Shown piece after piece: positions 13,069-45,601 of a DNA stretch of 64,000 nucleotides. Numbering within the stretch: the first letter of the stretch is position 1; the number at the start of each line of letters is the position of its first letter. This DNA is from Raillietiella orientalis (Eukaryota). The stretch covers positions 2,046,001-2,110,000 of the forward strand of contig JAYWIR010000005.1 in the NCBI GenBank assembly GCA_036172245.1. The letters run 5' to 3'. The position numbers and the translations under genes were made by a program. The notes beneath the pieces were generated by a model, which saw nothing but the letters and a program-made list of their open reading frames with translations, was not told the DNA's origin and searched no databases.

Positions 13069-14129
13069 GTGATCTGCTTCCATGTATCTGGCGCTTACAT
13101 GTTCTATTCGGAAATTCTGGTTTTGTTAATTGAATCACCTGATGGTCATGAACAGATATGCGTGCGCATTGAACTGATTAAATATATTCCATAATCCATG
13201 TCTGCTGTGATGAAATGTGTGTGAAACATAAACAAGATATGTGAACAAGTATTTAATTAAAGAGTATTGCACCTGCTTACTTCGTTCACCCTCGGTTGAA
13301 GTCACCAGCAGTCATCACAAATGCATCGAGATTTCCATACTCCTTTCGCTTTGCACGATATTCCCTGGTTTATAACAGCTGGTCACCTTGAAAACTGGTC
13401 ACACATATTGCAGAAATGAGAATAAGCTTTTGATTCCGGCAAGCTGTACCCTGAAACAGCTCAACTGAAAATTTTCCATCGACCACGGGCTCCACTCCTA
13501 AGTAACCGACTGCGTTCATTTTTCCTCTTGCTCTTTGACTCCGTTGAGGAGTCGCCCTGAAATCTTTTTGAAAAATTAAAACTGAACGCCTATAAGGATA
13601 CGTGAAAACTGTGGAACATTATTTTGCTCAAGAAAAAGAAGGAATTGAGCTTTGAAATTGAGTGAAATGCGAGCGCAGATTTTGGAAATATGCATCTGTC
13701 ATGGAACTTTTTCCAGGTCCTCATGTGGTAACAGTGTGGAGTTTCCCGAAGAGATTCTTTTATGGAAAAATAGCAGTTTATTAGGAAAATAAGCTACCTG
13801 AGTTTTGAGGATCAATTTTGAAATGAGCGTAAGGACTCCAAGTGTTTAACTTTGTTGCAGAAGCATAGATAAAACGAACGGCATCTTTTCAGGAATCCGA
13901 AATTTTATTCTCAGGAAAGAAACCTCATTCCACTATATCTACAATTTCGTTTCCAGAATTTGATTACTTTCTTAGGAACCTCAAACTCTACTGGAAGATT
14001 TCTAAAGAAAAAAAAAAAAAATTACTCACGAATGTTAATCTGGACTTTTCGTATATAGCTCCAAAAAAATGACGCAAGTAATCGCAAAAAAAATTCTCAA
14101 ACACCGCAGATCAGGTAAATTGAAGCCAG

Positions 14130-14736
14130 CTTACAATTTTCACGATGATGCAAGAAAATTCTGCTGAGCTTTGGTCAACTCCGATGGACGTACGAAACAT
14201 CGACGAGACCCCTTGTATAACACTGCGTTGCAGCTACTTGCCTCGAGTCTGCATACTCTACACCTCGTTTACATATCCAGTGCATTTCGACGCTAAAAGA
14301 TGTTCTTGGGAATCCTCCGACTGGCATGCTCAACGTCCTCAGGATCACGCACCTCAACGGTCTTCCAACGCCCTCAGGATTTAAAGGAAAGCCTTAGCTC
14401 TAAAGGCAGAATCCCAAACTGGATAAAATTAATAGAGACGGTGTGATACAGTGGAATCACTTTCTATTCCTTCAGGTTTTGGGGTCCGCCAGCAAGGATT
14501 CTATTGAATGACAGTAATGATGGGTAAATTGATTCTCGGCATCAGCATGAAATGGCCCATGGTCGAAAGCAAGTGAAAAAGGAATCATCGTAATCGTTTA
14601 CTCATTCCCGCAAATAGGTCATATGTAGGGAACATAAACTCGGTACGATCAGTGATTCTTTCGTTCACACGACCTTGATACTTGAGGCTCCGGAAACCGA
14701 TTTCCATGCCCCGTAGTTAGAAAGCTCCGAAGACAT
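14130..14736 (-). pseudogene. Decayed exon of a multi-pass membrane protein family (possibly gustatory/odorant receptor-like), paralog 1
   Basis: Nucleotide similarity to 20540-21104, including a shared acceptor context TTCAG|ATGTCTTC, and to ~53240-53820 (GGAGGATTCCCAAGA). Many stops. Confidence 0.3.
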
Positions 14737-15694
14737 CTGAAAGTCAAATTAGCAGACGGTGGTCACCAACTACCGCAACGCGCAAACAGCTTTAGTTTTT
14801 CTTCGACCTTTTGAAAGACGAGTAAATTGTCAGATTTTTGCTGAGGTTAAGAGGAATTCATCCAACAGAGGGTTTCCTGCTAGTCTCACTCCCTACTTCT
14901 GTTATGTGTTAAGTGTAGGAATGGGCACGGCAACAGGATGGAGCAGGGGAAACGATCCTCTTGATGAAAAAAATGAGCCTCCTCATCATGCACCATGGAA
15001 GATTCAAAGAAGTGTATTCCCTCGCTGCAGGTCCAATGCCTCGATCAAGGTGTTACCCGAGAAACCTTCGCCATTGCCGTGTGCTCCTGAAATGAAAGTA
15101 CTGTACCGAGGTTCTGTTCTGAAACGTGGGGCATTTCGAAGGCAGAGGACGAGTTTGCTGAATCTATCACCATGCTGATTCCTGGAGCACTCTCACAGCA
15201 TTCTGAAATTAGTTCTCCAGCTACACATCTGGTTGTCTCTTTCTTTTTTTGGCATCGATTTATCTTGGGGTGGAGTAAATAATTGGTTATTAATGAAATT
15301 GTGTGTGGACTCTGGGGGGGGGGTACTTGTCTGCAAACTGGATTCGCGTTAAAATTCATTTTCAGGTCAAGGTCATCAACTCTGATGAACTGAATTCGTC
15401 CGAAAAAGCAATTTCTATCTCGTGAAATTAGAAGCAGCGTGCGAGCACATTTTCTTGCATCACATTTAGACTCGAATTCAATCTAAGTTTTAATAATTCA
15501 CCTTCCTCCTAGAGGAAAATCTAAATTCTGTGTATACATATATATGTATATATAGTGAGAGAGCGACAGAAATGTGAACAAATGCTCACCATATGTTCTA
15601 TAGAGAGAATATATGAGAGAAGATGAAGACTAATAGAGAGGAGAGATAGCTGAATAGAGGATTGGTAAGCTGTTTACTATTTTAGCAAGATGGC

Positions 15695-15714
15695 TTAGGT
15701 TAGGTAAGGCTAGG
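15695..15714 (+). repeat. Short degenerate (TTAGG)n tract
   Basis: TTAGG TTAGG TAAGG CTAGG; TTAGG is the arthropod-type telomeric unit. Confidence 0.5.
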
Positions 15715-16140
15715 TTCCTAAAAGAAATAATGAGTTTTTCTTCGCCTTTATGGTCACTCCGTAATGTCTGTTTTCTCAGCTGACATTTTCCTTCAGAGTG
15801 AGGTCAGCTGTCCTTTCTCTACTTCGGGCTTTGTGATTTCCGCCAGTTCCCTCCGCTTCAATCTGTCGCGGTTATCTCAACACCAGCGGCCTGCAATTCC
15901 CAATCTCATTCCCTCTTGAAAACTCGTGAAATTTCGTTTTCCTGGTTGCGCCGATCTCGGCATTCCTGGAGTGAATAATTGATAGGGCATCTCTCGAAAC
16001 GCATTTCTTGCATTTTCCCTACGGTTTTTCCCTTTCTTTCTGTACGGAGGAAAGCATCCCTACGTGGAATCCTTCAGCCGCAATCCCAGCAGCAGGCACT
16101 ATCGCCTTTCCAAATTTTCCACTTGACTCAGAAGTTTTTC

Positions 16141-25036: not shown

Positions 25037-26150
25037 AAATAAAAAGAATAGAAAAATATATAAGAAGAACCGAGCGGTCGCAACCGATTCTGGAAGGTGA
25101 CCCGCAACCAACGGCATCCACCACACCTGCACCTGCGGCAAGCAGCCATGTAGAAGCCGATGAGGGGGAAGAAGAAGCAGGCTGGGTGCAGGTCACCTAT
25201 AGGAAAAAACAAAAAGTGGAAAAAAGCAAGGGGAAGAAACTGCAGATCGCTCGCGAAGTCATTCCATGACTCGCGAAAATAAAGAGTGGTAGCTGCGGCT
25301 CAGTGCACCGTCCCACCTCCTACGGAGAGTGACAAGGTCGCACCACCCTTGACCGAAAGCACGGTAGACGGGACCTGCAACATGCAGGTCGTCAAGGTTA
25401 CTGACCTCGACGGCGCACCATCAGCGGGGCCTAGCGGCAGTCCTGAAAACCTCCTGCAGCCTCTGGAAAGCTCCTCAGCGTCATGACGCGCGCAGCCGCG
25501 AGAGGCGCTCGGGACGCTATAAGCGGTCCCACAGAAAGAATCGCTCTGCCCGACCTCCGAAGTAGAGGCGAACGCGGAACTGGCGCCTCTCGTACAGGGA
25601 CCACGCCACACGTCCTCACGCCATGCCGAAGGGGTCCACAGGGAAGTATCCCTGCTAGGAAAGAACGACGCTGGCTCCTCTGGGTCAGCCCAGAGAAGAT
25701 GGAGGAAGGCTCACGGGACTTCTTCGTGGTGACAGTCCCTTTCCGCCGCAAGGTGAGGAGGGCATAGGGCGCGCCACGGAAGTTCGATGAATGCCTTCCC
25801 CCAGCGGGAACGTGCCCCCTGCAAGCCAGAAGGGGGCCGCACTACCAGATTCCCAGCAGTAATACTCTAGTCGCGTCCTCTCGTCGCTTGAGCGTAGCCG
25901 TTTGGAACGGGAACGGCCTGCGCGACCTCGAAAAAAGACGCGACAAAGCCGACTCCCTACGAAACTTCGACTTGATCCTCCCACGATCCTCCAAGAGATC
26001 CACGTGATCTCTGACGAGGATGCCACCGACTTCGAACGGATCGCGGGCGGAAAGCTGCATTGACAGTGTGGCACCCATAAATCGAAAGGGCGGCCTTCCT
26101 GTTGGAGCCAGCCATCATGTGCGCGGTGCATAGCGTACGGTTCGACGTTG

Positions 26151-27474
26151 ACACTCGGTCAAGCCGGGGCATTTATTGAAAAATTCTAGCTGGTACAAGC
26201 TGGTACGAAGCCCCAGTAAGGCCAATCATACAGTGTACCTGCCGGGTCGTCAGTACGCAGACTGACGGGAGTCTCCTCGGCAGCGGAGGGGGATGGGGAG
26301 AGAACAAAAGCCAAAAATAAAATAAAAATGGATACAAAAAAGCACTCTGGAGTGGAAAGGAAGGGATCATGGCCCTCTGGAGGCGGGATCCATCCTTCGC
26401 AGGATCCTGGCGAGGTCCTTCCGGAATAACCTCAGGTGGGGCCATCGGGTGGCTATTCGCAGGAAGCGAACTGCATATTCGACGACGTCCCTTTGGTTGC
26501 TTCCTGCTGCGTCGCCGCCGCTCCAGGAAGCTACAATCCCGCGCATGCAGCAAAGTGCTGCCAAGGCTGCGGCTGGCTGCAGGCCATCCTCACGAAGAGG
26601 AGGCGTATGATGTTCCTGGGGATGCTGCCACCGGGCATTCGGAGGGTCTCGGCAAACCGTTCCCAAAGGGGCCGGAGGGCAACACAGTCTACTAGCAGGT
26701 GCAAGAGGGATTCTTTTTCCCCGCACCTGCTGCAATTCGGGCTCACCCTCCCCAACGTCCACCACTGAACGTTGGGGAAGGTGGGATAGAAGTGTGCAGT
26801 GTGCGGGGATAAGGAATCCCTCCCCACCTGTTAGTGGACTGCGCTGCCCTCCGGCCCTTGTGGGAACGTTTTGCTACGACCCTCCGGATGCCGGTCGGCA
26901 GTACCCCCAGAGACGTTGTGAGACTCCTCTTCGTGCGAGACGCCCTGCCACCAGCCTCAACTCTGGCAGCGCTCTGCTGCCTCCGAGGGATTGTGGCCGC
27001 CTGGAGCGCAGCCAACAGAGGAAGCAGCGACAGGGACCCCATCGTACACGCGGGTCGCTACCTGCGAATCGCGATCGGCTGGTCCCATCTGGGAGCTATG
27101 ACGAGGGACCTCGAGGGCATCCTGGAAAGGATGGTCTCTTTTTCCAGCGGGCCGTGATCCCTTCCCGGCCCTCCAAATAGTTTCTTTTTTTTTTGTTTGT
27201 TTCATTTATTTTTCTTTTTGTTTTACCCCTATCCTCTCCGCTGCCGAGGAGAGTCAAGCCGGTCTGCGAACCGGCTTCCTGGCAGGTCCCATGAACTATT
27301 GGCCGTAGCGGGGCCTAGTACCGCAAATGTAAAGTGTTCATTAATAAACGCCCCGTGGTGACCCGGTGAGAACTCCCTAACGTCCAGTGATGCCAGAATG
27401 CGTTGCAGGGAAGACCCCAGTGCAATATCAGCAGCGCCGACTGCTGCCATTTGAGGGGCAGGGTGGTCATGTTT
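26151..27474 (-). mobile_element. 5'-truncated LINE inserted into the APE domain of host X
   Basis: Perfect 17-bp TSD CGTACGGTTCGACGTTG at 26134-26150 and 27475-27491. Encodes LPLKWQQSALLILHWGLPCNAFWHHWTLG|RVSPNCSRCGEKESLLHLLVDC. Confidence 0.9.
26762..27372 (+). mobile_element. 5'-truncated LINE inserted antisense into the 26151-27474 copy
   Basis: 14-bp TSD with one mismatch, CTCCC(C/T)AACGTCCA, at 26748-26761 and 27373-27386. Contains CAVCGDKESLPHLLVDC and ends with the family motif plus AGAA. Confidence 0.9.
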
Positions 27475-27491
27475 CGTACGGTTCGACGTTG

Positions 27492-27570
27492 CCACCTGGT
27501 CACGCCGGGGCGTTTATTACAAACTGACAACAATTGCAGTATAAGGTCCCGCTGCGGCCAATAAAATAAG
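27492..27570 (-). mobile_element. ~80 bp LINE 3' stub
   Basis: Terminal motif (reverse complement) CACCTGGTCACGCCGGGGCGTTTATT, flanked by GGTTCGACG at 27480 and 27571. Confidence 0.75.
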
Positions 27571-28882
27571 GGTTCGACGCGGAAGGTCGGGTCGGCCAGC
27601 TTGTGCTCAAGTGGTCCGACTCGATCGACCCCGTCGTTACCAACGTCTATACGAGAGTGGCTGCCACCTGCATAGGGAACGGAAAGACTTTTTCGACTCC
27701 CTGAAGCGCGGATGGCTGGATGGCACAAGCGTCTGCAAGGCCCACCTGATTGCAGGCGATTTCAACGAGCGATGCGGATGCGTTTTTCCGTCTCTCTCGT
27801 TGTCAGACTTTCTTGGGCTTCATCTTGGTGTTGTGCGTCCAGAAGACGATGTCAACCCCATCTCAAGCCATAGAAGCTGGAGGAGCCACGCCCGCATCTG
27901 CAGCCGCGGAACCGATGGCCGCATCCACTTCGTCTTTCTCGCCAACGGCGAGAAGTTCTGCTGACGTTGCTGCAGCCGCAGCCTTCAAAGGGGGACACCC
28001 CGATGAAGCGGAGTGGCGGCCCAAGGCTACAAGCCCGCACTCCGTTATCAGGTGAGTGGGTTTCTTTCCGTCCTTTTTAAATAAATGCCCCGGCTTGACT
28101 GGGTGCCAATGTCGGAGAGCAATGCTCCGACTGGGAAAGAGGAATCGCCGGCATCAGCTTTTAAGGCAGGCGCTCAGGCAGCGCCTCAGGCGTCCACGCC
28201 TAAAATCGACGGATCGCTCGCGTGCAAAGGCGCCAGCGAATCGCAAGATCGCGACGGCGGATGGACGGTGGTGGACCGGAGCAAAAGGAAGAGTCTTCCT
28301 AAGAATGCTCCTCAGCCTCCGTCCGTCACGCTTTGCAGGGCGAAAAACTGACGCGCCCTGAAGACTTGCGCGAAGCTTCCAATGGCAAACCACGAAACAA
28401 TCATCCCCGGGAAGGAACGCTCGTCTCCTGGCAGCACCTTGAAGGCCGGTGGCGACCGTGCCCTCCAGCCAGTCGTTCTGCTCACCGTCCGCTCGCCGGA
28501 CAAAAGGAGCAAAAAAACGCCGCCTTCCCAGCTGTGATGCGGGGAATCGCGTCTTCTCGTCGTCTGTCCGTCGCGTGTTGGAACGTGAACGGTCTGCAGA
28601 ACGACGAGAAGAGGCGATTGGTAGCGAACGCCCTGCGCCCCTTCGACCTCGTGCTCCTGCAGGAGATTCACGTAATCTTCGACGAGCAGGCAGAGGAAAT
28701 CGAGGAGCGCGCAGGCGGTGCGGCGACCCACACACGGCGGCGTCGCGTTCCTCTCAAGAGGAAAATTGGCGAGAGCGGTGCGTGGCGTTCGATTCGACGA
28801 TGATGGCCTGGTGGGCCAACTTGTTGTCAAGTGGTCCGAGTCCATCGATCTCGTCGTGACGAACATCTACGCGCCGAGTGGC

Positions 28883-28963
28883 TCCAGCCACCTCATAACA
28901 TCTGCTGTGCTAATTGGCAACCAGACTTCGCCAAACTCTCGACCGATAGGTGGATTATACACA
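28883..28963 (+). repeat. 81-bp inverted duplicate of Rep segment 29782-29862
   Basis: Reverse complement of 29782-29862 with one mismatch (ATAACA vs ATATCA). Encodes QPPHNICCANWQPDFAKLSTDRWIIH on the + strand. Confidence 0.95.
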
Positions 28964-29446
28964 ACTCATCAGAAATATCTACCCCTGACATATGCTTCAT
29001 CACATGGAAGCGATTAAATCCAATGATAGCCTTTGTTTCAAAATCTAAACCACTGCCTCCACCACAATCTACCCAAGGGCACTCCCAATATCTATCTAAC
29101 ACAACTCCATCTACTGCCACTTTTTTCAACAAGTACGCCTTCCCGTCCACACGGACACCCCTTACACCAAAATAACGTGAGAAACAACCAAACGTCTCAT
29201 CATGAGCACCGACACGATTCATCACATCATTATAAGAATGCCCAGCCAAATTTCCAAAATGCTCTCCTTGAGCAGCAGCCTGATACAGTACCATATTTCT
29301 ATACGATGCTTTCATTCCAAACTCCTCCGCCATATTGCCAATCGTCAAATCAAGAGACATTGGCTCCACCTTCGTTGCGCAACCCTTAATCTTCACATAA
29401 CGGTAATAACGCGCATACTGTTCGAGGTTTAATTGCCTCAGTGTTG
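28962..29446 (-). pseudogene. cap: CRESS virus capsid, central part (inverted segment)
   Basis: Open frame with EQYARYYRYVKIKGCATKVEP and CPWVD, resembling the Y.YY.I....K..P and PW(I/V)D motifs of circovirus-like jelly-roll capsids. Confidence 0.7.
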
Positions 29447-29572
29447 AAAGAGGCGTGTCAGTCTGGTGTGTGCCCAAAAAATGGAAGAATGAGTAAGGGT
29501 TTTCCAATATACAAGGTGACCTCAAAGTATTATGTAATGTTTAAACATCTGAGAGATGTTGGTCTGTATTAA
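29447..29572 (+). pseudogene. cap: CRESS virus capsid C-terminus (not in the ORF track)
   Basis: Reads KEACQSGVCPKNGRMSKGFPIYKVTSKYYVMFKHLRDVGLY*. YYVxFK is the typical last beta-strand of CRESS capsids. The stop overlaps ATTAAA and converges on the Rep stop 30 nt away. Confidence 0.7.
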
Positions 29573-29602
29573 AGAGGCAATAACAAAATCAATATAATTG
29601 TT

Positions 29603-30707
29603 TTATCGGTCTACTGCATCGTAAGAGGTGGAGGGTGGTGACAATGTGAAAATGGATGATGGTGCAGGCGAGTCAGAGGCTTCTTCTGGTCTACAGCTTG
29701 AAGAAGAAGGCCATGGGAGAATGCTTCCATCTTCCCCAATCTGCCAAGGCACTTTTTTACTGAGTGAAGAACTGGCAATGCTGTGTATAATCCACCTATC
29801 GGTCGAGAGTTTGGCGAAGTCTGGTTGCCAATTAGCACAGCAGATGATATGAGGTGGCTGGAAGTATTTTAAACTCCCTTGATACTTTGAATCAAAGATG
29901 ATGCCGTTCTTCAAGGATTCGATGAAGCCGCACTGCACGTGCTCCATGTTGTCTTTGGTGAAGTCAACCATGATTATTCTTTCTCCATTATAAGGATGGG
30001 CCGCATCGGCTTTGCGGCGGGAATGCATGTAAATTGCGTCCTTCTTGAGAAATAGAAATTTTGCCATCGTCGTTTTGCCGATGTTGCCACGGGTATCGTA
30101 ATACCAGTGGATTTTTCGTTGGCTTGGCTTGCGGCGGATGATGTCCAATATATCCATCTGCCATTGCTTGAGTTGGAGATGTGCTATGGGGTTGGGGTGT
30201 TGTCTGGTCCGGGAGAGGCGGAAACATTCTTTAATAAAATTGATATTTTTAGAGTAGAACTGTGTATGGTTCTCAAGTATGTAAAGTTTATCCGCTACAT
30301 TCTTATTAATTGAAGTATCTAGGAGAGAAATAGTATTTGATTTTGTTGTCAGTGATTTTCGTTACGTACCTGCTCTTGATAAGACTTTGGTTCGACTGTC
30401 TCATTGAGTGCTCCGAAGGTCCATGGGTTTTTATCTTCTTTGCTGCAGTACCGTATGTTGCTCTGCGGCGTGCCCTTGGCTCGCTCGAGATGCGTCTTGT
30501 GGAAGGGTTTGCGGTGCAAACCTGGCAGCGTGCGAGGCTCTTTCAGTTGCATGTAGCCTTGCAAGTGCAGTGTTCCTGCTTCCGCAGTTTCTCAGCCGAA
30601 GCGTGCGAAGAGGCAGTTAAGTCGACACCCTTGTTTTATCTCTTTAAATTCGTCTCCTGTGTAGTTACAGAATGTGACGCACCAGTGGAAGTTAGAGCGT
30701 AAGGCAT
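29603..30707 (-). pseudogene. rep: CRESS virus replication initiator (HUH endonuclease + SF3 helicase), ~368 codons, three lesions
   Basis: Motif I WCVTFCN, motif II LHLQG, motif III YCSKE, LKQWQ, Walker A region YDTRGNIGKT, Walker B IMVDF, ESLKNGIIFDSKY, and motif C ICCAN. Lesions: frameshift just after the ATG (30707), in-frame TGA at 30592-30594, and a frameshift at ~30360. Confidence 0.95.
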
Positions 30708-30759
30708 GATTATCAGAAATTCACTGAAGGTGAGACTACGGTTCGGATGTAATCGATGG

Positions 30760-30767
30760 TTTATATA
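30760..30767 (-). promoter_or_regulatory. Putative rep TATA box
   Basis: TATATAAA on the minus strand, about 53 nt upstream of the rep ATG. Confidence 0.6.
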
Positions 30768-30802
30768 CTGGCTAACTGCGCAGTATTTTTAATTTTTTGT
30801 GA

Positions 30803-30834
30803 GCACAATCTGGTCAGTATTACCTAGATTGCGC
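30803..30834 (+). promoter_or_regulatory. Rolling-circle origin stem-loop with nonanucleotide CAGTATTAC
   Basis: GCACAATCTGG-T-CAGTATTAC-CTAGATTGCGC forms an 11-bp stem with one G-T and one A-C pair. The nonamer at 30815-30823 fits NAGTATTAC. Confidence 0.92.
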
Positions 30835-30875
30835 AGTAATCATCCGACGCCGTGGGAAATTGTTGTGTAAGCAGA

Positions 30876-30883
30876 TATTTAAA
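30876..30883 (+). promoter_or_regulatory. Putative cap TATA box
   Basis: TATTTAAA about 46 nt upstream of ATG 30922 (MRKAISFSAVVSGETRPRGRL), on the opposite side of the origin from rep. Confidence 0.4.
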
Positions 30884-31417
30884 GTGTCTGGTTTGTGTCC
30901 GCAGTCGTGGAAGACTTAGGAATGCGGAAGGCGATAAGCTTTTCAGCTGTCGTGTCTGGCGAAACCCGACCTCGTGGAAGACTCGTCTGCTTGCACTCTT
31001 CGAGCAAGTGTAGAGCCACTGGCTCAACACCACCGGCCCCCAAGTGGCGCACCTCGTCGCAGGGGACTTCAATGTCCACCTGCTCTCTGACGAATGGAGC
31101 TGCCGAGGGAGCGCTCGCTGGACATCGAGATGTGCGCGTCAGTGCGCTCTGCCAACTTGATGGTAGGCGTACCTGAGATGCCAAGATCGCCGGATCACAT
31201 CTTCCTCGATGACAACCTGCATTATCGTGTGGGGAGGAGAGGAAGATTGCCGTCCGGACTTTCTGACCATCACAGGTTGAAGTTCGAGCTCCTTTTGCAA
31301 GGCAAGGGACCTCCGTTGAACAACTGGAGGATGCCGGCGGACTGGCTTAGCCATCCGGAGGCGGCGGAACATCTCCCTCAGCACCTTCGGGGCTTCGTCA
31401 TTTGGGAGCTCGCTTCT

Positions 31418-31720
31418 CACTCGGCGCCGGGGCGTTTATTCCTTCGAATGAAACAAGGAGAATCTGTAGCTTAACCAGTGGTCCAGCCACGCGCGAACAA
31501 ACAATAGAGAGCCTGCTGGGTCACCGGTTCTCAGACCGGTACGGTCCACCACGACAGCACAGAGAGGGGCGGACAAAACAAAAAGAAAAACAAAAAAAAT
31601 AAATAGAAAAAGTATCTGGTGGGCACGGGAAGAAATCATAGTCTGCTGGGGTGCCATTACATCCTTTCTAGGATGCCAGCAAGCTCTTCCTTCATGTGCG
31701 TGTCCAGCTGAGCCTACTTT
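31418..31720 (-). mobile_element. LINE 3' end fragment inserted in Y
   Basis: Terminal motif (reverse complement) CACTCGGCGCCGGGGCGTTTATT plus a T-rich 3' UTR. Confidence 0.65.
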
Positions 31721-32742: not shown

Positions 32743-33482
32743 CCCTTGCCCCTCACTCCATGTAATTGTTTCTGCATTTTTCGTTTACACTCGCGTCCCC
32801 ATAGGCTCTGGAACATCCCAGGTGCTCCTTGTTCTAATCCTCGTGAGTGTGGAGGCTAACCAAAGAACCGTTACCCTTCCCTCCCTTTTTGTTTTTTTTT
32901 TTGTTATCCCCTAACTCCTCCCATGTTGCGAGCAGTTTGTTTACCCGGCCTGCATATCGGTAACTTCTCTATGTTCTCTGTCGTTGTGTTGGTTGGGGAC
33001 ATTGTCCCTGACCGGGTTATTATCAATAAGCCCCCCCGCGTGACCGGGTGATAAATTTCAACATTCGCCTGCTGTCAGGTGCGGCGAGGATAGAGGCCAC
33101 CCCGATTAACGAGATGTGAGCTGCGGTGCATGCGTCCTACTTGTTAGCCGGGGACACCGGAATGGAGGGGAGCGTGGACCACGCCTTCTTCGACGAGCAC
33201 CTGCGCTCTCGCATGGATAGGCGAGGTAAGATGCCGTCCGATGTCTCCGACCACTCCCGTGTGGAACCCATTATTCGCTTGCACGACAGGGGACCCCCTC
33301 TTGCAGGCGTGGCGTCTACCGGGGGACTGGCCGACCAAGCCAGGCGCAGAGGCACACTTCCGCGCGTTCTTGCGAGGTTTCAGCGTGCAGACGCTCGACG
33401 ACTGGGACGATCTAAAAGTCTCGGTCCGAGAGTTCTGCCAGCAGTTCCCCATGGACCGTCTCCCAAGAGGATTTGGCATTGC

Positions 33483-35269: not shown

Positions 35270-36090
35270 CCTGCCTCGTTCCGGTCAGCTAAAGTAAAAC
35301 TCCTCCCGAAAATAGGAGACCTACACAACATCGGCAACTGGCGACCCAATACAGACGCTAAGTTGATGGCGAAGCTGTGGTCCAAGAGAATCGGACGGGT
35401 GGCCGAAACGTTCATAAGTCCGTAGCAGACGTACGTTGTTCCCGACCAATCGATGGAAGTCAACTTGTTCCTCTCGCGTAACTGGCTCGCGTTGCAACAC
35501 TGGGGTGACAGCAGTCCCTGGGGATCTCGATTCCCCAAGAGTTAGGGACAGGAAGGCCCTCTGTTGGGGGATGCGTCGGGAGCCGTTGCGATTGTGCAAA
35601 GCGTTCGACTGAGTCGACCAGGAGCTCTTTCTGGAGCTTTTAGAAAGCATGGGATTTCCGGCCGTGTTCCTGACCTACCTGTGCTCCTGCTGGCGCTTCG
35701 CGTTTATGAATATCAGCTTCAGCGGCCGGCACGTGTACAGCGTGCCAGTTCAGCGTGGCATAAGACAGGGTGACAGCCTCAGTCCCCTGCTCTTTAGCAT
35801 CTATTTCGAGTTGGTGCTGGGGGCGTCCAGGGAGACTTTGGCAACCCTACAGAGCTGGTGTCCCGGCACGCCCGCCGTGTCGGCCTACGCAGACGAGCTT
35901 CTGCTGCTGCTCCCCGGGTCAACCCTGGCGTCTGCGCTCGAGGATTTCTTCGAGCTGCCGCGGGACAGGCCTGGAGGTGAACAGGCCGAAGTCGTCAATA
36001 ATATCTACAGATTCGTAGCAGGACGGCCGGACTGGATCCGCTTGAGGATCCCCACGAGAGGGTACTTCAAGTACCTTGGCGTTCCGCTGG
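35270..36090 (+). pseudogene. LINE reverse transcriptase domain of host X (frameshifted)
   Basis: KVKLLPKIGDLHNIGNWRP..NTDAKLMAK, QRGIRQGDSLSPLLF, AYADE and FKYLGV. Confidence 0.92.
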
Positions 36091-37785
36091 AGGACTTCTG
36101 CGTTGCAGAAGCCTGGTCCGACCGCCTCCAAAAGGTGGAGTTGGCGATCGGCCCGTTCCGTTTCCAAGTTTTACTTGCAGGAACGGGCTGAGGTGTGGAA
36201 CGCTTTCGCGGCACCCTTTCTTCGCCCCCAACTTTTTGTTTGTCCCGCCTCACCCCAAATCAGGACAACGACAAGGGGTCTCCTCAGAAAAGCCCTCTGG
36301 GGCAATCGGAGGTCCCACGTCCAAATTAAAGACTTTTGCGCTCCACGCAGGGACGGTGGACTTTGTCTCATGACGTTGGAGCGCATGGAGCGTCAGCTCC
36401 AAATACGCAAAATCGCTCTTGTGGCTAAATACTGGACTGTGCCATGGTGTGCACCCACACGACTCCTCGCCTATAGGGTAAGCGGCTGCTACGGATTGAC
36501 CTCGATCCTAGTGGCTAACGACCGCAGTCTGAACCATTGTGGGTTTCAGCTACGGGATTTGGTTGCCCTGGTGAGTTAAAATACGTCGATCTCCGGCGTC
36601 CCCGAGAACTGGACCATCTGCCTTCAGGAGTCCGTTTCCTCATGGGCAAAATCAACGGCTCCAGCGATGAGGACCACTCCTGCCTTCGTTGAGGCAGGTA
36701 CGCTGGCCAGTCCCTGCGAGAGATCGTTTCCAACCCAAGGAAACTTCTGTGGGCTTCATTCACCCCCCTTGTACCGTGCTGTCTTCCCTGAGAGACGCTA
36801 GGGACAGCCAAGAGGAAGCATAGTGGGAAGTGTTCTGCCTCATCAGAGGCAGGAAAAAACTCTTAAAGGCGTGGACGTCTCGGGAACTAGAGAACGCTGC
36901 AACCCCGAGTATCCCACCTAATGGACTTGTGCTCTGGGGCGAGCTGCTCGATATACCTCCGGAGGAGGCGAAGTGGTCCCCAACGCATTGGGACAATGGT
37001 ACCCTCCCTTTGGATTGGGAGGAGACGGCGCTGCTCGTGTTGCATTGGGGACTCCTTTGCAGAGCACGCCTCTCCCACTGGACATTAGGGAGTATGGATG
37101 CCAATTGTACAGAGTCTGGGGAAAGGAAGAGCTTCCCCCACCAAATAATCGAGTGTTTTGCCCTCCGCTTATGTGAAATCGACTCTCGTCGATTGTGAGC
37201 ATTTCGGTGGGCGACCCAAAAAACATTTTCCGTCGCCTCCTGATGCGGGACGCCCCTCCAGCCGCCGCGGGTGTTACAGCTCTCTGCTGCATACGCGGAA
37301 TCCTGGAGAAGTGGACCGCGTCAAGGAGAGGCCGCAGTAGTCGAAATGCCATTCACTGGGCGGTCATCTATATGGAGAAGGCTTCCCGTTTCGCCGGCTA
37401 ATAAAAATTCTGCCGGCACTTGTCCGCATCCAAAACCGGATGCAGAGGCCTCCTCATGGCGTACCGTGATCCCTTCCCTTCCCTCCCCTCCCCTCCCCAT
37501 AAAATATTGCCCCCCCTGGTGTTTTGGGGTTTTGTTCTTGTTTTTGTGGTTTTTCCCGCCCCCTTCGCCAGTGTAGAGGACCTCACCGTCCTGCGGGTCG
37601 GTGAGGACAAGTGCATCAAGACAGACAGAACCATGTGTTCTGACTGAAAAAATTCAAAAAAGACAAGACTTTATTATGGAATTTCTTGAAAAATTTTAAT
37701 AATTAGAGCCCCGACTTGCCCGGGTGAAAAACCCCCGAAGGATGACGATGGTTGACCTCGAGGCTTACGGTGAGGCATTGGTTGA

Positions 37786-40400: not shown

Positions 40401-43400
40401 GCAAGGCAGCCGCTTCGGAACGACTTTTGCCTGCACGTGGCACACGCAGGAATTCCTGTCGGCCTCACTGTTGTCCTGTTCTTTCCAACAGGACAGTGAC
40501 GAACAGATTCCTTCCGGGAAATGAAAGGACGGCAGCTCTTTTGAAGGATTTCACTGCCATGGAGGGCTCCTCCCTTCTCGGCTTCTTGAGAATCTGAGAG
40601 GAGACGAGATCACAGGAACATCAAAGAGCCATGCTAAGACCCACTCAAGCGATAGATGATGAGAAGATCTTTGGAGCGTCGGATTTGAAAGAGAATCTTC
40701 AGCACTGGCACCTTGGTTGTAGCCATTCCACTGAGTATTCGGTTCTGAATGTCAGTGGGACTGCTCAGAGGATGCGGATGAGCGCTCAGAGTGTCATTAT
40801 TTTTTCAAGTCATTTCCGCAGATGCTGCGGGGATGCTGGACCCCAGGAACTTGCTTCGAAACGTAACAGGGTCATTCCGATTTCATGAGAAACCTTAGTT
40901 ATCCACTGCACACGACACAGTGGCAGGACATAACTCTGGAGACAATCAGGAAGAATGCTGAGATGACCTTGGATCCGAAACGGAGTTGCTGATGCTGCAT
41001 CAATAGTTAATCATATCGATCAAAGTCCTTGGAAAGTCGTTAAAAGAGAGGATGCTAAGAGAGAGATGTCGTCTTGGATCTCATGGAACTCGATAGAAAC
41101 TCGTGCGCATGGGATTCAAAAGATGATTATTTCTGAAAGCTAGAAGCTGTGAAAGGGTTGAATGCCACACAGAACACACCGTGATCACGTCCCAAGTACG
41201 GCCGGAGGATCATTCCTTGCGAACTCTTTTTGGCAAGCCTTCAGGTGAAGTTCCCCAGGACTTTCCGCAGTGACCCCGGACAGCCGTCACATCCCTTGTC
41301 CGCTGCTCTTATCTGCCCCCAGAGCAGACAAAAGCAGCGGTTAATCGGAGGGGTGAGAGCTCTATCGCACCATTGTAGGAATCAAGAAACTCGTTGCTGG
41401 TCGGAAGACGAGAGAGCTGGCGGAGGCCGCCTCTCCTCGTTCCCGGGCTCAGGAGTCCCTTCAGTGTTGCGAGCTGGCTGCGTGTTTCCTGAATAATTCC
41501 CAATCCCTCCCTTGTGTATAGACTCTGCATTGCTCGTACCAAAATGGAAATAGGATATTCTGATGTTTCTGCACGGGGGGTTTCATTCGACCAGCGCACT
41601 CAGCTGGTTTCTCGGGGAGCTGCCTCTCCAAACTCTTCCAGGAGCGAAGGGATCGACTCTTATTGGACACTGTTGTGTCCTGGAGTTCATTTGGCTGCGG
41701 CTCGCTTTGGCGGCAGGCCACCTGGAAGACGACTCCAAAGACTTGAGCGGAGATTATTTACGCACAACGGGATGATGTCAGGCTCTGTGACCACGAAGAG
41801 ATGCTGCATCCACGCCATCGTCGCAGCCTGCTTCGTGATAGAGTCCCGTTCCTGGCGAAGGGAGGCCACTCGCATGGCCTCCTTTCCTTAAGAGGTGGCC
41901 TCACCTGTAGGAGATCTCCAGCGTCCAGTGCAGCTGTAGGAAGAAAGAAGCAGCTGGAAACAAAGACTCCCGCCTTTTTTTTTACTTTATCTATTGTTCT
42001 CTCTCCTGCTTCATACTCCCTTAGGAACCGGCCTGCAAGCTGGTGGTCATCTCCGTGGACTTTCGACGTGATTTATTTATTTTTGAATGAATGTCTTGGC
42101 GTGAGCGGGAACCCCGCTGTGCTGCCGATACAGACATGGCTGAAAAGGATGAGGAGGCCCTCTAGGTTTCCCGAATCGTTTCCTTGTGCTGCACGGCAAA
42201 AGCAGAACACAGAATCCTTCGTCTTATGCACCCCCCCCCCTCAAAGAACAATGCAGGTGCTGAGAGAGAAGCACAGACAAAAGATTCAGGTTTTCTGTGA
42301 GTTTAGTGGACAGTGGCCAAGAGCGCAAAGTTCAACTGTACGTAGAAGGGTGGATCCAGCAGAACATTATGCTGAAGATGCATCTCGTAGCAAACTGATT
42401 TGCAGATGAGCGGTTTTTCGGTCGCCATACCTTACAAACGACCACCAGATAGGTGACAAGGAAAAGTCTGATGATGATCACATCCTCCTTCTCATCGCAT
42501 TGATCCTTTTGCCTGCCTGTGGAGGGACAGTAGAAAAATGCCTCATTCTTGTGGGCACCACTGCTTTGGCGCAGCTTCAGAATCTGCAACCAAACAACAA
42601 ACTTTCAATAGAAACAGTGGAGCTGTGAAAAGCTTGGACAATGGACACGTCAAAGGCAGACTGATCATAATTTTCGGATATGTTGGCGCTCCATTTTTCC
42701 TTTGAGGATAGATAGAAACCCGGGCGGTCCTTTTATCTATGCTGCAGATCAGCACAGGCGTATTGTGGGCGGATACACCAGGTGCTTTTTAACACATTGG
42801 AGATGGATGCGTGGATCTTCTCAAACTTGGCTAGAAAAGCCACATGTCTTTTATGAGAAATGGCGTAAGATTCTCAGCTTTTATGATTGAAAAGAAGAAT
42901 GAAGCGAAATTTTTGGTCTACGGGGAATCGTTTACCAGCTTTGCTGATGAGCGTACTCATACCCTGTACTGTTTGTATTACACCCTGACTTTACTCGTGC
43001 TCTGCCGTATTAAAGATTGAAGGGAATTAACGCAATATTATTAAACAAAACTTATGAAATCAGAGATTAGATGGGATTTCCAAGTTAATAAAATTGGATA
43101 GATAGGATTGAACAGAGTTTCTTAGTGAGAATAATGGAAGATAAACGATATTAAATATAATAAATATGTTCATTAAGTAAAATTTTTGCTCAATTGGAAG
43201 CTCCTTCAATTGAATTTTATTTAATGGAAGAATTCTTGTTGATTCTAGGTTAAATTTCAGAATTCAATTCATCTTGCGGTTTACACGAGAGTTTAAATTT
43301 AAAAGAGTTTAAATTTCCTTCCGGCGGAATGCAGTATTTGTAGAGAAGCTGCAGACAGCGTAGGTCCATCTCTACTCGAATGAAATCAAAATGCACTTTC

Positions 43401-45601
43401 CAACTTCTTCATATCTGTGATCCCGAGAGACATGTTTTCTTCATTTTAGATGTGCTGTTCTATAGCATTTCCTATAGCTTCCGCAACCAGTGAGCACAGA
43501 CCTTTAATGATGCCATTTCTTTTTGGAAGTTTCGTACTCGACGTCACCACATTCACAAAGTGGACAATTTGCTTCTGGATTGCCCATTCTTTAAGGAGTC
43601 CTCAGCAGGTTGCTATTGGTGATCACCTGTCAGATTTACTCTAACGCAATGAACGATAGAGTTGCACTTTTCCTTTCCGTTTCTTGGAAATTCCAAAATC
43701 ATTCCAAACTTAGTTTGGAATTTGCGAGAGCTTCTTTTGGAACCAAAAGGTCATTCTTAGCTGTTGTATAAGGAAGTTGAAATTCACATCATTTGCTGAT
43801 CGACAGTCATCACTTCTCGATCATGATATTTGATAACTGTATTCTTTACCCCTTCGAAACATGCCCCACCACTCTCCTTTAACTCAGATGCTTTCGAGCC
43901 TTTCGTCGCCTTCTTGGTGGAATCAACGCAATATAAACGAGTCATGGATCTTCCTGATACAGGATTGCCCTATTTTCATGTTTTTTTCCTCTGATGTGCT
44001 CCAGCAAGAACATCTCCTTCGGGATCGAGACCAGGGTGAGCACTTGTTTTCTTCGTTTCTTTGCGCAGCCATTTTTCTCGATATGAACCAATCCTCAATT
44101 AGCGTACCATTCAATGCATCCGTTGGTTAGGTGTCGCCGCCATCAGCAATTGACAGTTCACTTGGAAGAAGGGAAATCCCCTAGATGGGTAGCAAGATCC
44201 GTTTTTTTGTCCAACATCATGTGGTTGGGAAGCGAGGGAGAAATCAAAGCTGCTCTTCGCACCCACTCTCTTCTGAGAGAAAACAGGAAAAGAGGAAAAT
44301 ACACACAAGCATGCACTGCTTTGATCTTTTGTCCGAAAGTTTGTTTCTTTTTCCTTAAGAGGCAACATCTCAGTCAAGGCAAATGCATTTATCAAGTGCA
44401 TGTGTGCAGTCTATTTACGTAAAGTAATGCATCCTGTCCATTACGATGTACGTTCTCTTCTCTGTGTATGCAAGCTGTGTGTTAATTTCCAACGGTGAGA
44501 GTGGGCTTAACATGGATTCTCAGAGTGAATTCTGGCTGTCGGGCTGCAGGATTTCCGAGTGCTTGACGATCTAACGAGGATGCGTGCACGAGGACATCCA
44601 AACTGACGGAAGAGCGTGAACTAGTGAGCGTCCCTTGCGGAGTGGACTAAATGTTTAAAGTGGATAGAAAGGAGCGAACTTCCTATAAATCAGTGGGAGC
44701 TGGACCCCTCGTAAAGGTATGTGAAAAGCAGATCCGCTTCGAGTATTACCTTTTGCGCTTACCTCATTAAACCCGCACGAAAAACTGCTGCGAGGAGCAG
44801 CATTACCGATACATCACCTAACAGTTTGGAACAGGGTGACCTTTGAAACGCACCTCCTATTGAGGATTCCAGCTTCCACGAATCTTGTTCCCATAGAGGC
44901 CAGCAGCATGGGCAGGATCTGACAAGTATCATACGAAGAGTCCAAATACTTTGACGTCCAAATGCTTGGTTCCTTCTAGAATGCAGATCCGAGGTAAAGC
45001 CTGTTCGGTGTTTGGAAGTAGGAATCCTTTTCTGGCTCTTTCTCTCTGCAGGAGATCGGGGGTTCATGCTGTGTCTCCAAAAACAATCGAAAATGCAAAG
45101 ACGGAGATGGCAAAAAAGGGGTAACTTCTCTTGGAAGAAATCCCCAAAAGACTAAGCTGACCTGTCTTTGCAAAAGGGGGCTCCTTGGATGGAGTCGCTG
45201 GAAATGGAAAGCTGACGTAGATGAGAGTAAACCAAATGTAAAGAGAGAATACCATTTCAGCATCTCCGTGGAACCACCTCAAGCGCAGAGGTGCAAGCAG
45301 CGCTCTACCGATGGTTTCCCAATCGGCAACTTGAAACCCATTCCACGTAGGCGAAAATAAGGGATGAAAGGTATTCGAAAAACCAGCTAAATAAGGAAGG
45401 AAGTGGAATTTGTTGATATTTAACGGAGCTTCGCTTGTGTGGGCATGGTGCTTGCAAGATCTTCTTCAAGAAACAGCAGCTTTTCTTTGCTTTCCTGGAA
45501 ACGCCTTCAAAAGGAAACAGAAGCAAAATGCGGTTGAGGCGAGATGCTAGTCGAACGCCTCCGGCATTTCGGCGTCATGCTCCCTCTGAGAGGCGAAAAA
45601 G

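Follow-up and report, generated by a model that had tools for sequence, protein, structure and literature searches.

A probable endogenous CRESS-DNA virus, disabled and rearranged, inside a LINE-like retrotransposon of Raillietiella orientalis

The window, that is, the whole stretch of 64,000 nucleotides that was analysed, contains at 28883-30971 a block of low-GC foreign DNA that interrupts a single LINE-like endonuclease ORF (Table 1). The block is most probably (about 85%) what is left of an unclassified CRESS-DNA virus (Cressdnaviricota): a dead endogenous copy, rearranged and captured in the host LINE-like retrotransposon by double-strand-break repair. The element would now be inactive in replication, a fossil tying its Rep lineage to a eukaryotic host. 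It is a fairly ordinary, though good, example of a CRESS viral fossil, a kind already known. Like the known endogenous viral elements (EVEs) of this group, including the circovirus- and cyclovirus-like ones of animals, the geminivirus-like ones of plants, and those of Entamoeba and Giardia, it is a chromosomal viral Rep with stops and frameshifts. It differs from them in sitting inside a LINE with an inverted duplication of 81 nt, and from EVEs that are Rep fragments in keeping Rep entire, along with the hairpin of the origin, the two promoter-like boxes and a second ORF.

Most CRESS-DNA virus genomes are metagenomic and their hosts are not known. With a chromosomal copy, one deep-branching Rep lineage is linked directly to a host. 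Because Rep, the origin and part of the second gene are all preserved, the architecture of the genome is recorded too, as it cannot be in fragments of Rep alone. The use of EVEs to tie virus lineages to hosts is described in several papers (PMC6186406, PMC7493932, PMC5014472, PMC7758297, PMC10193959) and is an established practice, so that the present case adds a data point and not a principle.

Table 1. Features of the insert and its flanks, in window coordinates
Feature	Position	Strand	Basis
LINE-like endonuclease (APE) ORF, 5' part, left flank	28303..28882	+	Pfam Exo_endo_phos, weak
Inverted duplicate of the Rep 3' region (plus strand encodes PPHNICCANWQPDFAKLSTDRWIIH)	28883..28963	+	inverted repeat with 29782-29862
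ORF2, 192 unique codons	28964..29540	-	dinucleotide shuffles
AT-rich spacer, 62 nt, Rep stop to opening of the ORF2 frame	29541..29602	.	sequence, ORF table
Rep C-terminal tail, 60 codons after DRWIIH; stop 29603-29605	29603..29782	-	ORF 29603-30361
Rep SF3 helicase domain with linker	29783..30318	-	family profile
Motif C, ANWQP	29822-29836	-	profile column match
Walker B, IIMVDF	29960-29977	-	profile column match
Walker A, GNIGKT	30071-30088	-	profile column match
Frame change in Rep: candidate 47-nt GT-AG intron (GTAACG ... CTGAC ... TTTCTCTCCTAG, phase 1) or frameshift lesion	30319..30365	-	sequence
Rep HUH endonuclease domain	30366..30720	-	Pfam Viral_Rep, family profile, PDB sequences
Motif III, YCSK	30439-30450	-	profile column match
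Motif II, HLQG	30556-30567	-	profile column match
Motif I, WCVTFCNY	30664-30684	-	profile column match
TATATAA, TATA-like, ~55 nt upstream of the Rep ATG	30761..30767	-	sequence
Origin-like hairpin, 8-bp stem with one-base bulge, CAGTATTAC in the loop (30815-30823)	30803..30834	+	fold
Divergent intergenic side: TATA-like ATATTTAAAG (30875-30884), ATG 30922 starting MRKAISFSAVVSGETRP..., truncated at the host junction	30875..30971	+	sequence
12-nt direct repeat TCGTGGAAGACT at the right junction (copies 30905-30916, 30972-30983)	30905..30983	+	two exact copies
LINE endonuclease ORF, 3' continuation (…AHLVAGDFN…), right flank	30972..31474	+	alignment, tblastn

The Rep gene and its interruptions

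The minus strand carries a CRESS-DNA virus Rep of two domains, an HUH nuclease and an SF3 helicase. HUH motifs I, II (HxQ) and III (YxxK) come in order as WCVTFCNY, HLQGY and YCSKE, and GNIGKTT, IIMVDF and CCANWQP of the helicase lie downstream of the nuclease domain. Each of these motifs, on which the original prediction of a Rep was founded, sits in the matching column of a Rep-family profile built from 99 homologues. The profile scores 75.5 bits on the nuclease piece (profile positions 16-116), 224.9 bits on the helicase piece (positions 117-316), and 311 bits when the breaks in Rep are read through as X. Pfam Viral_Rep matches the N-terminal piece at 3.7e-10 (40.4 bits, cut-off 26), and Pfam RNA_helicase falls below its cut-off on the helicase piece (19.4 vs 21.5 bits), which the ESM Atlas places in Cressdnaviricota clusters at 0.97. 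Eight Rep nuclease-domain sequences in the PDB match the N-terminal piece (5e-10 to 1.1e-6); among them are 2hwt_A, 6h8o_A, 2hw0_A and 7lar_A, which we take to be divided between nanovirus and circovirus Reps. The C-terminal tail adds 4.8 bits to the profile score, against 2.4 if Rep is continued instead into the left arm of the inverted repeat. Homologue tails past the DRW motif, which could be located in 87 of the 99, are 5-127 aa long (median 21). The helicase-coding segment 29782-29862 doubles as the right arm of that repeat.

Rep is disabled and in its present state cannot be translated. Relative to motif I, its ATG (30704-30706) is shifted out of frame by one base, a TGA lies in frame at 30592-30594 within the HUH domain, and even with splicing allowed the gene gives no single translatable frame. 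A further frame change is visible in the reading frames at 30352-30365. The three lesions listed originally are all present as interruptions, but this third one may be an intron, a possibility that had been missed. The alternative, a frameshift, places the break within 30352-30361. When the break is read through with X, the family profile scores 311.2 bits on the spliced model and 304.0 bits on the frameshift model, an edge of 7 bits that is largely insertion penalty. Frame changes inside Rep are seen in just one of 80 relatives (L074); introns interrupting CRESS Reps are reported in a passage of PMC6186406. The odds are roughly even that the candidate is a genuine spliceosomal intron of 47 nt retained from the virus. 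If it is, then DNA was integrated and not a processed transcript.

Relationships of the Rep

Among 1.84 billion proteins, 6511 match the helicase piece at E<=1e-3, and the piece falls in a very large set of metagenomic Reps with KNGxxFSxKY and [AS]N[FW]xP signatures. The top match (2.9e-62) is a protein with two tandem helicase copies, and the next best are at 1e-34 and weaker; with the tandem protein set aside, the helicase piece is 31-47% identical to the best 150 of the 6511 matches. Viral_Rep and/or RNA_helicase (E<=1e-3) was found in 17 of the 18 top matches scanned. IMG/VR yielded 367 relatives, and the 80 that were kept come from contigs 2.0-3.6 kb long. A tree of the window's Rep and 79 IMG/VR relatives puts it on a long branch (1.26) beside a clade of 11 loci that are mixed in genome layout, and this placement is weak (support 0.35). 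Such a position fits an unclassified lineage, which the original prediction had held possible for this endogenous virus. A bolder reading, in which the element represents a new eukaryote-infecting CRESS lineage at family level, its Rep spliced via the 47-nt intron and its ORF2 a structural protein without a relative among ~15 billion proteins, seems to us unlikely. If the lineage were indeed new at that level, diverged second copies in host reads would indicate repeated or ongoing infection.

The closest likeness is to metagenomic CRESS-DNA viruses (IMG/VR L001, L002, L008, L011; Logan P0004-P0152). They have the same two-domain Rep motif set, genomes of ~2.0-2.3 kb, similar in size to the ~2.0-kb copy of the window, and (C/T)AGTATTAC in a hairpin loop, usually opposite to Rep, as here. 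Unlike theirs, the window's copy is integrated, disabled and rearranged, and its second ORF is dissimilar to all of their second ORFs and lacks the basic N-terminal arm.

Nanovirus and alphasatellite Reps carry similar helicase signatures (…KNG…KY…, ANFxP), but the components of these viruses are ~1-1.3 kb with one major ORF each. By that general definition the window's copy, with Rep and a 192-codon ORF in ~2.0 kb, departs from Nanoviridae and Alphasatellitidae. With Circoviridae it shares the Viral_Rep-type HUH domain. The only match in a word index, obtained with the N-terminal piece, is P0002, a 313-aa Rep with Pfam Viral_Rep and RNA_helicase that is 39% identical to that piece and that we take, from its sequence, to be circovirus-like. 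The likeness ends at the helicase, which has 0 matches in the same index and, against P0002, only a 22-residue match at Walker A (BLASTP, E 0.16). Against PDB chains the helicase piece has no match at E<=1, although the library includes the full-length 7lar_A ('ATP-dependent helicase Rep', 314 aa), presumably the porcine circovirus Rep, which does match the N-terminal domain. The helicase half thus fails to align with presumed circovirus Reps, in line with one half of the original lineage claim; an affinity with nanoviruses or alphasatellites, the other half, is possible.

HUH Reps occur in plasmids and transposons too, and the top database match, P0003, is labelled a bacterial MAG protein ('hypothetical protein', the only label among the 10 best Rep matches), either of which could suggest that the insert belongs to a cellular mobile element or is a host gene that was domesticated. 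We regard this as highly improbable. The combination of a Viral_Rep plus SF3 Rep, the CAGTATTAC hairpin and divergent TATA boxes is that of 2-kb viral contigs, and P0003, with its two tandem helicase halves on a 3.9-kb contig, looks like a misbinned fragment of a virus or an EVE. The insert is, moreover, present as a single copy in 64 kb, which speaks against a mobile element, and since its Rep is not translatable it is not a working domesticated gene.

The origin region and the second reading frame

Next to Rep and on the other strand, a stem-loop bears the nonanucleotide CAGTATTAC in its loop. The stem is imperfect and weaker than most of those of the relatives: it folds at -6.1 kcal/mol (z -2.40; 7 of 200 shuffles equally good), and the relatives have a median of -10.8 kcal/mol, with 8 of 56 weaker than the window's. 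The nonanucleotide and the loop layout recur in relatives, for example L001, L003, L004, L011, L019 and L016, in agreement with the origin originally proposed, and the nonanucleotide is opposite to Rep in 38 of 55 informative relatives. Other AGTATTAC sites of the window (935, 25859, 44742, 56331) were rejected as origins, being without hairpin or Rep context. Two direct copies of TGCGCAGTA flank the hairpin (30777-30785, 30830-30838), and there are no other exact copies; with up to one mismatch, this iteron-like 9-mer has 11 matches vs 7.7 expected, which is not above chance. The two divergent TATA-like strings noted originally are both seen and are putative promoter boxes. The plus-strand ATG is 99 nt and the Rep ATG 109 nt from the nonanucleotide. 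By analogy, the divergent side of the intergenic region is a candidate for the 5' end of a virion-strand gene.

ORF2 is, statistically, a real coding sequence: an ORF of at least 192 codons, in any frame, arose in 0 of 2000 dinucleotide shuffles. Beyond these codons the frame stays open for another 23, across the duplicated arm, until a TGA at 28893-28895. At its other end it is without a start codon before codon 52, and a stop (29541-29543) lies directly upstream. Homologues were found neither in Pfam, PHROGs, PDB sequences and a 5.8-billion-protein index nor by an IMG/VR pattern scan; a pattern scan of metagenomes gave 82 pattern matches, of which 0 were confirmed, and the word index gave 0 matches. 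Comparison by phmmer with 552 ORFs of the 80 related loci produced no match, and hhalign against five capsid clusters from relatives gave probabilities of at most 2.2%. The ESM Atlas returned a recognition score of 1908 and only eukaryotic clusters, at 0.90 or below, and a single-sequence AlphaFold model (pLDDT 31.6) was unusable. A second ORF with an R/K-rich N-terminus is present in 67 of the 80 relatives and such an N-terminus is absent from ORF2 (7/60 R/K). What had been called capsid-like sequence is a significant ORF without detectable homologue, capsid hallmark or start, and its naming as a capsid is not supported.

A capsid gene on the plus strand of 28964-29602 was considered and discarded, the three frames holding 5, 11 and 11 stops. 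The 30-nt convergent intergenic region of the original prediction falls with it, since the open frame is on the strand of Rep and the plus-strand frames carry stops. Also discarded was the idea that ORF2 natively runs into the 3' end of Rep. Among 64 relatives, none has a 3' overlap of at least 70 nt between Rep and the second ORF, so an ORF2 that extends into the arm is not native.

Junctions, native order and the host locus

The two arms of the inverted repeat, 28883-28963 and 29782-29862, are 81 nt long and 99% complementary (blastn 98.8%), differing at 1 of 81 positions. The left arm fits the Rep-family profile at positions 282-313 (E 3e-9). This duplication went unmentioned in the original prediction. 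The outer ~15 nt of the left arm (28883-28897) also resemble the LINE target, the other LINE copy aligning through 28897, and a GCCACCT stretch at the left junction is common with that copy. At the right junction, the copies of TCGTGGAAGACT, for which 0.32 matches (<=1 mismatch) are expected by chance in the whole window, bracket the last 55 nt of the insert; LINE homology restarts at the second copy, and the other LINE copy has CGGAAAGACT at the matching place. With one LINE comparator, at 77%, the junction positions are good only to ~10-15 nt and the microhomologies are approximate. The inverted copy at the left end and the 12-nt repeat at the right junction mean that the insert is scrambled and not a clean, near-complete genome. 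To call it near-complete overstated the case for a rearranged copy that has an inverted duplicate of 81 nt and an ORF2 open at both ends.

The GCCACCT microhomology, the 12-nt repeat and the inverted copy of the Rep 3' region point to joining by break repair. A double-stranded replicative form, or fragments of one, would have been joined into a break in the LINE via microhomology or template switching. Rep nicking at the origin would not have been the joining route, as the origin lies inside the insert and is unbroken. The junctions would offer a small worked example of break-repair capture as opposed to Rep nicking.

As to the native order of the genome, we lean towards an ambisense arrangement, in which a virion-strand gene would start from ATG 30922 and ORF2 would be an internal piece of this gene, truncated at both ends and flipped. 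Of 38 relatives whose nonanucleotide is opposite to Rep, 36 have the second ORF on the nonanucleotide strand. The spacer between Rep and ORF2 is possibly a second rearrangement junction. A more doubtful alternative is that the insert is collinear with a native unisense virus, with Rep and then ORF2 on one strand and the origin nonanucleotide opposite. This would take one linearisation of the genome, at a point between ORF2 and the intergenic region, and a fold-back or template switch that added the inverted fragment at the left end. In keeping with this, 28964-30971 is contiguous with no internal junction detected in it, and the Rep tail in its present order fits the profile slightly better (224.3 vs 221.9 bits). 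The layout of the window, both ORFs on one strand and the nonanucleotide opposite, does occur in 2 of the 38 relatives, one of which, L002, gives the helicase piece its best single match, so the orientation of ORF2 may be native; a passage of PMC6186406 describes unisense CRESS genomes. Against collinearity stand the 36 ambisense relatives and ORF2 itself, startless for 51 codons behind its upstream stop and without the basic N-terminus. The TATA-like box and ATG, moreover, point away from Rep where the second gene of relatives begins, and the origin of L002 is between the 3' end of Rep and the 5' end of ORF2, unlike that of the window.

That the insert is embedded in host repeat DNA, as had been claimed, is borne out by a step in GC (0.43-0.46 in the insert vs 0.56-0.58 in the flanks) and by the LINE ORF continuing collinearly across ~2.0 kb of unique viral sequence (28964-30971). 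Pfam Exo_endo_phos matches the left flank at E 1.6e-4 (22 bits, under the 24.5 cut-off), and the short LINE pieces beside the junctions have no Pfam match even at E 10. The second LINE copy matches 28793-28897 with its positions 27573-27674 at 77%, and 27702-27765 of the same neighbouring copy align with the right flank at 31009-31072, collinear with the left-flank alignment and only ~27 nt from it. Host sequence thus lies on either side, collinear with an uninterrupted LINE target, as judged from one comparator at 77% identity. At the protein level the left-flank LINE also matches 27495-27653 and 25849-26051, and the right flank matches 27713-27766 (E 0.001) and 33111-33387 (4e-15) by tblastn. 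The window is without N, and a second Rep-like locus was not found within its 64 kb.

Sequencing libraries are often contaminated with CRESS genomes, and a free, exogenous or contaminating, genome might have been misjoined into the host contig by the assembler. A search of public sequencing runs listed no RNA run and one DNA run (X1, share 0.16), which has exact contigs of 29349-29499, of 29575-29810 and of the flank at 31197-31417. These contigs cover 11 of 30 bins and span neither junction nor Rep (gaps 28836-29002 and 29838-31173), as a misjoin would allow. We nevertheless consider an assembly artefact very unlikely. The same LINE ORF is on both sides, collinear within ~27 nt of the sister copy; Rep is broken by a stop and its start is displaced; less than one full genome is present; and the arms of the inverted duplication differ at 1 of 81 positions. 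At 7-15 nt, the strings common to the two sides of the junctions are probably too short to have led an assembler to a join. In run X1 the insert pieces match the unique flank in having similar low depth (2.5-4), a weak measure. The contig of 29575-29810 breaks off after 29 nt of the repeat arm, which is what two contexts of the arm among the reads would produce. Run X1 may be the sample from which the window was assembled. A diverged second copy of the element was also seen in this run.

A CRESS-type Rep within a LINE-like element

The insert is the fossil of a CRESS-DNA virus replicon, scrambled and dead. Its minus strand codes for a complete two-domain CRESS-type Rep, and the nuclease and helicase frames carry all the RCR and SF3 motifs claimed in the original prediction. 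The nuclease frame scores 40.4 bits with Pfam Viral_Rep, above the cut-off of 26, and matches eight Rep nuclease-domain sequences in the PDB (5e-10 to 1.1e-6). Word-index searches are almost blind to this Rep, with no matches for the helicase piece and one for the N-terminal piece. Exhaustive phmmer with the helicase piece against 1.84 billion representatives returned 6511 proteins at E<=1e-3, 12 of them at E<=1e-30, with identities of 31-47% among the 150 matches listed. Viral_Rep and/or RNA_helicase is found at E<=1e-3 in 17 of the 18 top matches scanned; all but one of the top matches are unnamed, and they lie on contigs of 1.5-5.7 kb. A family profile built from 99 of the phmmer-found proteins scores 75.5 bits on the nuclease frame (positions 16-116) and 224.9 bits on the helicase frame (117-316), and in the ESM Atlas the helicase falls with Cressdnaviricota clusters (0.97). 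Taken together, the motifs and the Pfam, phmmer, profile and ESM Atlas scores argue for a Rep identity far beyond chance. Every Rep and origin feature that marks Cressdnaviricota is present, translatability alone being lost. The best database match of the helicase piece, P0003 (354 aa, labelled a Methylococcales MAG hypothetical protein, on a 3.9-kb contig), is made up of the CRESS Rep helicase half twice in tandem, and more probably represents a viral or endogenous fragment that was misbinned than a gene of a bacterium.

As predicted, the Rep differs from circovirus Reps in its helicase: no PDB chain matches the helicase piece at E<=1, and it matches P0002, a presumably circovirus-like database protein, in Walker A only. 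The full-length chain 7lar_A, which we take to be porcine circovirus Rep, is present in the PDB and matches the N-terminal domain of the insert's Rep but not its helicase piece. The helicase motifs may be nanovirus/alphasatellite-like. Nanovirus and alphasatellite components are structured unlike a roughly 2-kb, two-ORF genome.

The GC content is 0.43-0.46 over 29001-31000, against 0.56-0.58 on both sides. The plus strand of the left flank encodes an apurinic-type endonuclease from a LINE-like retroelement, in its 5' part (…CWNVNGL…LLQEIH…VVTNIYAPSG), for which the Pfam Exo_endo_phos match is weak (E 1.6e-4, under the cut-off), and in the right flank the same endonuclease ORF is resumed (…AHLVAGDFNVHL…). 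A second, uninterrupted LINE copy, one kilobase upstream, is collinear with both flanks, which are separated there by only about 27 nt. Given this collinearity and spacing, the insert is best read as a block of about 2.09 kb (28883-30971) that interrupts a LINE, at a cost of no more than about 20 nt of target. There are no N bases in the window, and no Rep-like sequence besides the insert. Degraded LINE-like copies or fragments with endonuclease and reverse-transcriptase pieces lie at 25849-27766, 28303-28882 plus 30972-31474, 33111-33387 and 35613-36191; the insert sits in one of several such copies, the comparable parts of which are about 77% identical. Other low-GC islands (0.37-0.43) are found at 13001-16000 and 43001-44000, the rest of the window being roughly 0.5-0.6, and on these islands the Rep family profile gave nothing significant (best E 0.61 at 13686-13730).

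Features of the insert and its flanks (window positions)
Feature	Position	Strand	Remarks
Left flank	28793-28897	plus	77% identity to LINE copy 27573-27674
Right flank	31009-31072		aligns with LINE copy 27702-27765
Rep nuclease frame	30720-30366	minus	WCVTFCNY, HLQGY, YCSKE
Rep helicase frame	30318-29783	minus	GNIGKTT, IIMVDF, CCANWQP
Nonanucleotide CAGTATTAC	30815-30823	opposite Rep	between Rep start and right junction
Origin hairpin	30803-30834		8-bp stem, one bulge; CAGTATTAC in loop
TATATAA	about 55 nt upstream of Rep ATG		putative promoter box
TATA-like ATATTTAAAG	30875-30884		side away from Rep, upstream of ATG 30922; putative
ATG	30922		opens MRKAISFSAVVSGETRP…; reading enters host junction
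Run X1 exact contig	29349-29499		depth similarly low in all three, 2.5-4
Run X1 exact contig	29575-29810
Run X1 exact contig, flank	31197-31417

Origin and interruptions of Rep

The predicted origin hairpin is borne out. It folds at -6.1 kcal/mol (z -2.40; as good in 7 of 200 shuffles), and two exact TGCGCAGTA repeats lie either side of its nonanucleotide. In related IMG/VR loci the origin has an identical layout (stem, xxCAGTATTAC, stem) and the stems are stronger (median -10.8 kcal/mol), the stem being weaker than that of the insert in 8 of 56. The nonanucleotide is on the strand opposite Rep in 38 of 55 informative relatives, as in the insert. Both of the divergent TATA boxes of the original prediction are present as strings, with a putative function. 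The octamer AGTATTAC is found at five sites in the window, where 0.34 would be expected, and none of 100 shuffles reaches that number; at its four sites outside the insert (935, 25859(-), 44742 and 56331) neither a flanking stem, by eye, nor Rep-like coding is evident nearby.

Three lesions had been predicted in Rep, two of which stand: the sole ATG (30704-30706) is one base off the frame of motif I, and an in-frame TGA (30592-30594) occupies a position at which homologues encode an amino acid. The third interruption, a frame switch between the nuclease and helicase domains, could with about even odds be a 47-nt intron rather than a frameshift lesion. The two open frames overlap by only about 10 nt (30352-30361), with which a frameshift in that interval would be compatible. 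The minus strand at the switch reads GTAC/GTAACG…CACTGAC…TTTCTCTCCTAG/AT, and the candidate intron is a GT-AG unit (30365-30319) whose phase is correct; it also has a pyrimidine tract, and 29 nt separate its AG from a branch-like CTGAC. Read through with X at the break, Rep matches the profile under either model, scoring 311.2 bits without insertion when spliced and 304.0 bits when frameshifted. Introns in CRESS Reps are recorded in PMC6186406. Against an intron counts that, of the 80 related genomes, L074 alone has a frame change of any kind in Rep.

ORF2 and the native layout

The capsid-like sequence of the original prediction was not recovered as such. The plus-strand frames across 28964-29602 hold 5, 11, and 11 stops. 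On the minus strand, one frame stays open over 192 unique codons, a length attained in no frame of 2000 dinucleotide-preserving shuffles, which argues that ORF2 is a real coding sequence, sharing Rep's strand in the window. It has no match in any library tried, none among 552 ORFs of the 80 related genomes and none, by profile comparison, to five capsid clusters (probability <=2.2%). The ESM Atlas did not recognise it, and single-sequence structure prediction gave an unusable fold. By its position, ORF2 may well be the body of a capsid protein. Its first 51 codons contain no start codon and a stop lies directly upstream; 7 of its 60 N-terminal residues are basic, against at least 20% there in the second ORF of 67 of 80 relatives.

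Where the nonanucleotide is opposite Rep, 36 of 38 relatives are ambisense, with the second ORF on the strand of the nonanucleotide, and two (L002 and L072) have it on the Rep strand, which is the rare layout of the window. The favoured reading, with a probability of about 0.6, is that ORF2 would be an internal fragment of a virion-strand gene, joined in flipped orientation, because TATA and the ATG at 30922 are divergent, ORF2 has neither start nor basic arm, its 3' end is a junction, and the AT-rich spacer 29541-29602 is possibly another. A truly unisense genome with an 81-nt fold-back added is a sizeable but lesser prospect: it requires no unseen junction and is mildly supported by the Rep tail score (224.3 vs 221.9 bits), but it has the layout of only two in 38 relatives and sits poorly with the divergent TATA and ATG and with the lack of a start and basic arm in ORF2. 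The Rep tree does not decide between the flipped and unisense layouts, because the window Rep is on a long branch (1.26) beside an 11-locus clade with a support of only 0.35, and layouts within that clade, read from the per-locus table, are mixed.

Junctions and sequencing-run evidence

At the head of the account of the 81-nt left arm and the insert junctions stands REARRANGEMENT. Positions 28883-28963, the leftmost 81 nt of the insert, duplicate 29782-29862, the Rep segment PPHIICCANWQPDFAKLSTDRWIIH, in inverted orientation (99%), and the ORF2 frame continues through this arm for 23 codons before a stop. Taken as native, this adjacency would give ORF2 and Rep a tail-to-tail overlap exceeding 80 nt that spans motif C of Rep. 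Among the 64 relatives whose second ORF is convergent, no overlap reaches 70 nt (maximum 4 nt), which rules out a native reading of ORF2 into the Rep 3' region and argues that the boundary 28963/28964 is a rearrangement junction at which ORF2 lost its 3' end. The near-complete element of the original prediction does exceed a Rep fragment in completeness, but is scrambled by the inverted copy and the cut in ORF2; assigning CRESS lineages to hosts from elements of this kind is an established approach (PMC6186406, PMC7493932, PMC10193959, PMC5014472 and PMC7758297). The single difference between the arms (28898 vs 29847) alters a residue, Ile in the right arm and Asn in the left, duplicate arm, that corresponds to a conserved hydrophobic site upstream of motif C.

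The arm's outermost 15 nt are also LINE-target-like (GCCACCT is common to both, and the neighbouring LINE copy aligns through 28897), suggesting a microhomology-mediated left join. At the right, two copies of TCGTGGAAGACT lie at 30905 and 30972, a distance of 67 nt, against a chance expectation of 0.32 matches (up to one mismatch) in the whole window, and LINE homology resumes at the second copy. Both ends point to an insertion that would have proceeded by break repair, through microhomology or template switching. Rep nicking at the origin is disfavoured as a route, because the origin is internal and intact.

The contigs of the public DNA sequencing run X1 reach neither insert junction. The 29575-29810 contig breaks off within the repeat arm after 29 nt, the behaviour expected of a k-mer assembler if the arm has two contexts; the support is weak, because X1 may itself be the source of the window assembly. 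Other X1 contigs are about 91-93% identical at 29073-29114 and 29253-29348 and then diverge, so that at least one further related ORF2-like sequence, from a diverged copy of the ORF2-bearing virus, endogenous or free, exists in the X1 material. Beyond these segments the diverged contigs continue into unlike yet loosely similar sequence.
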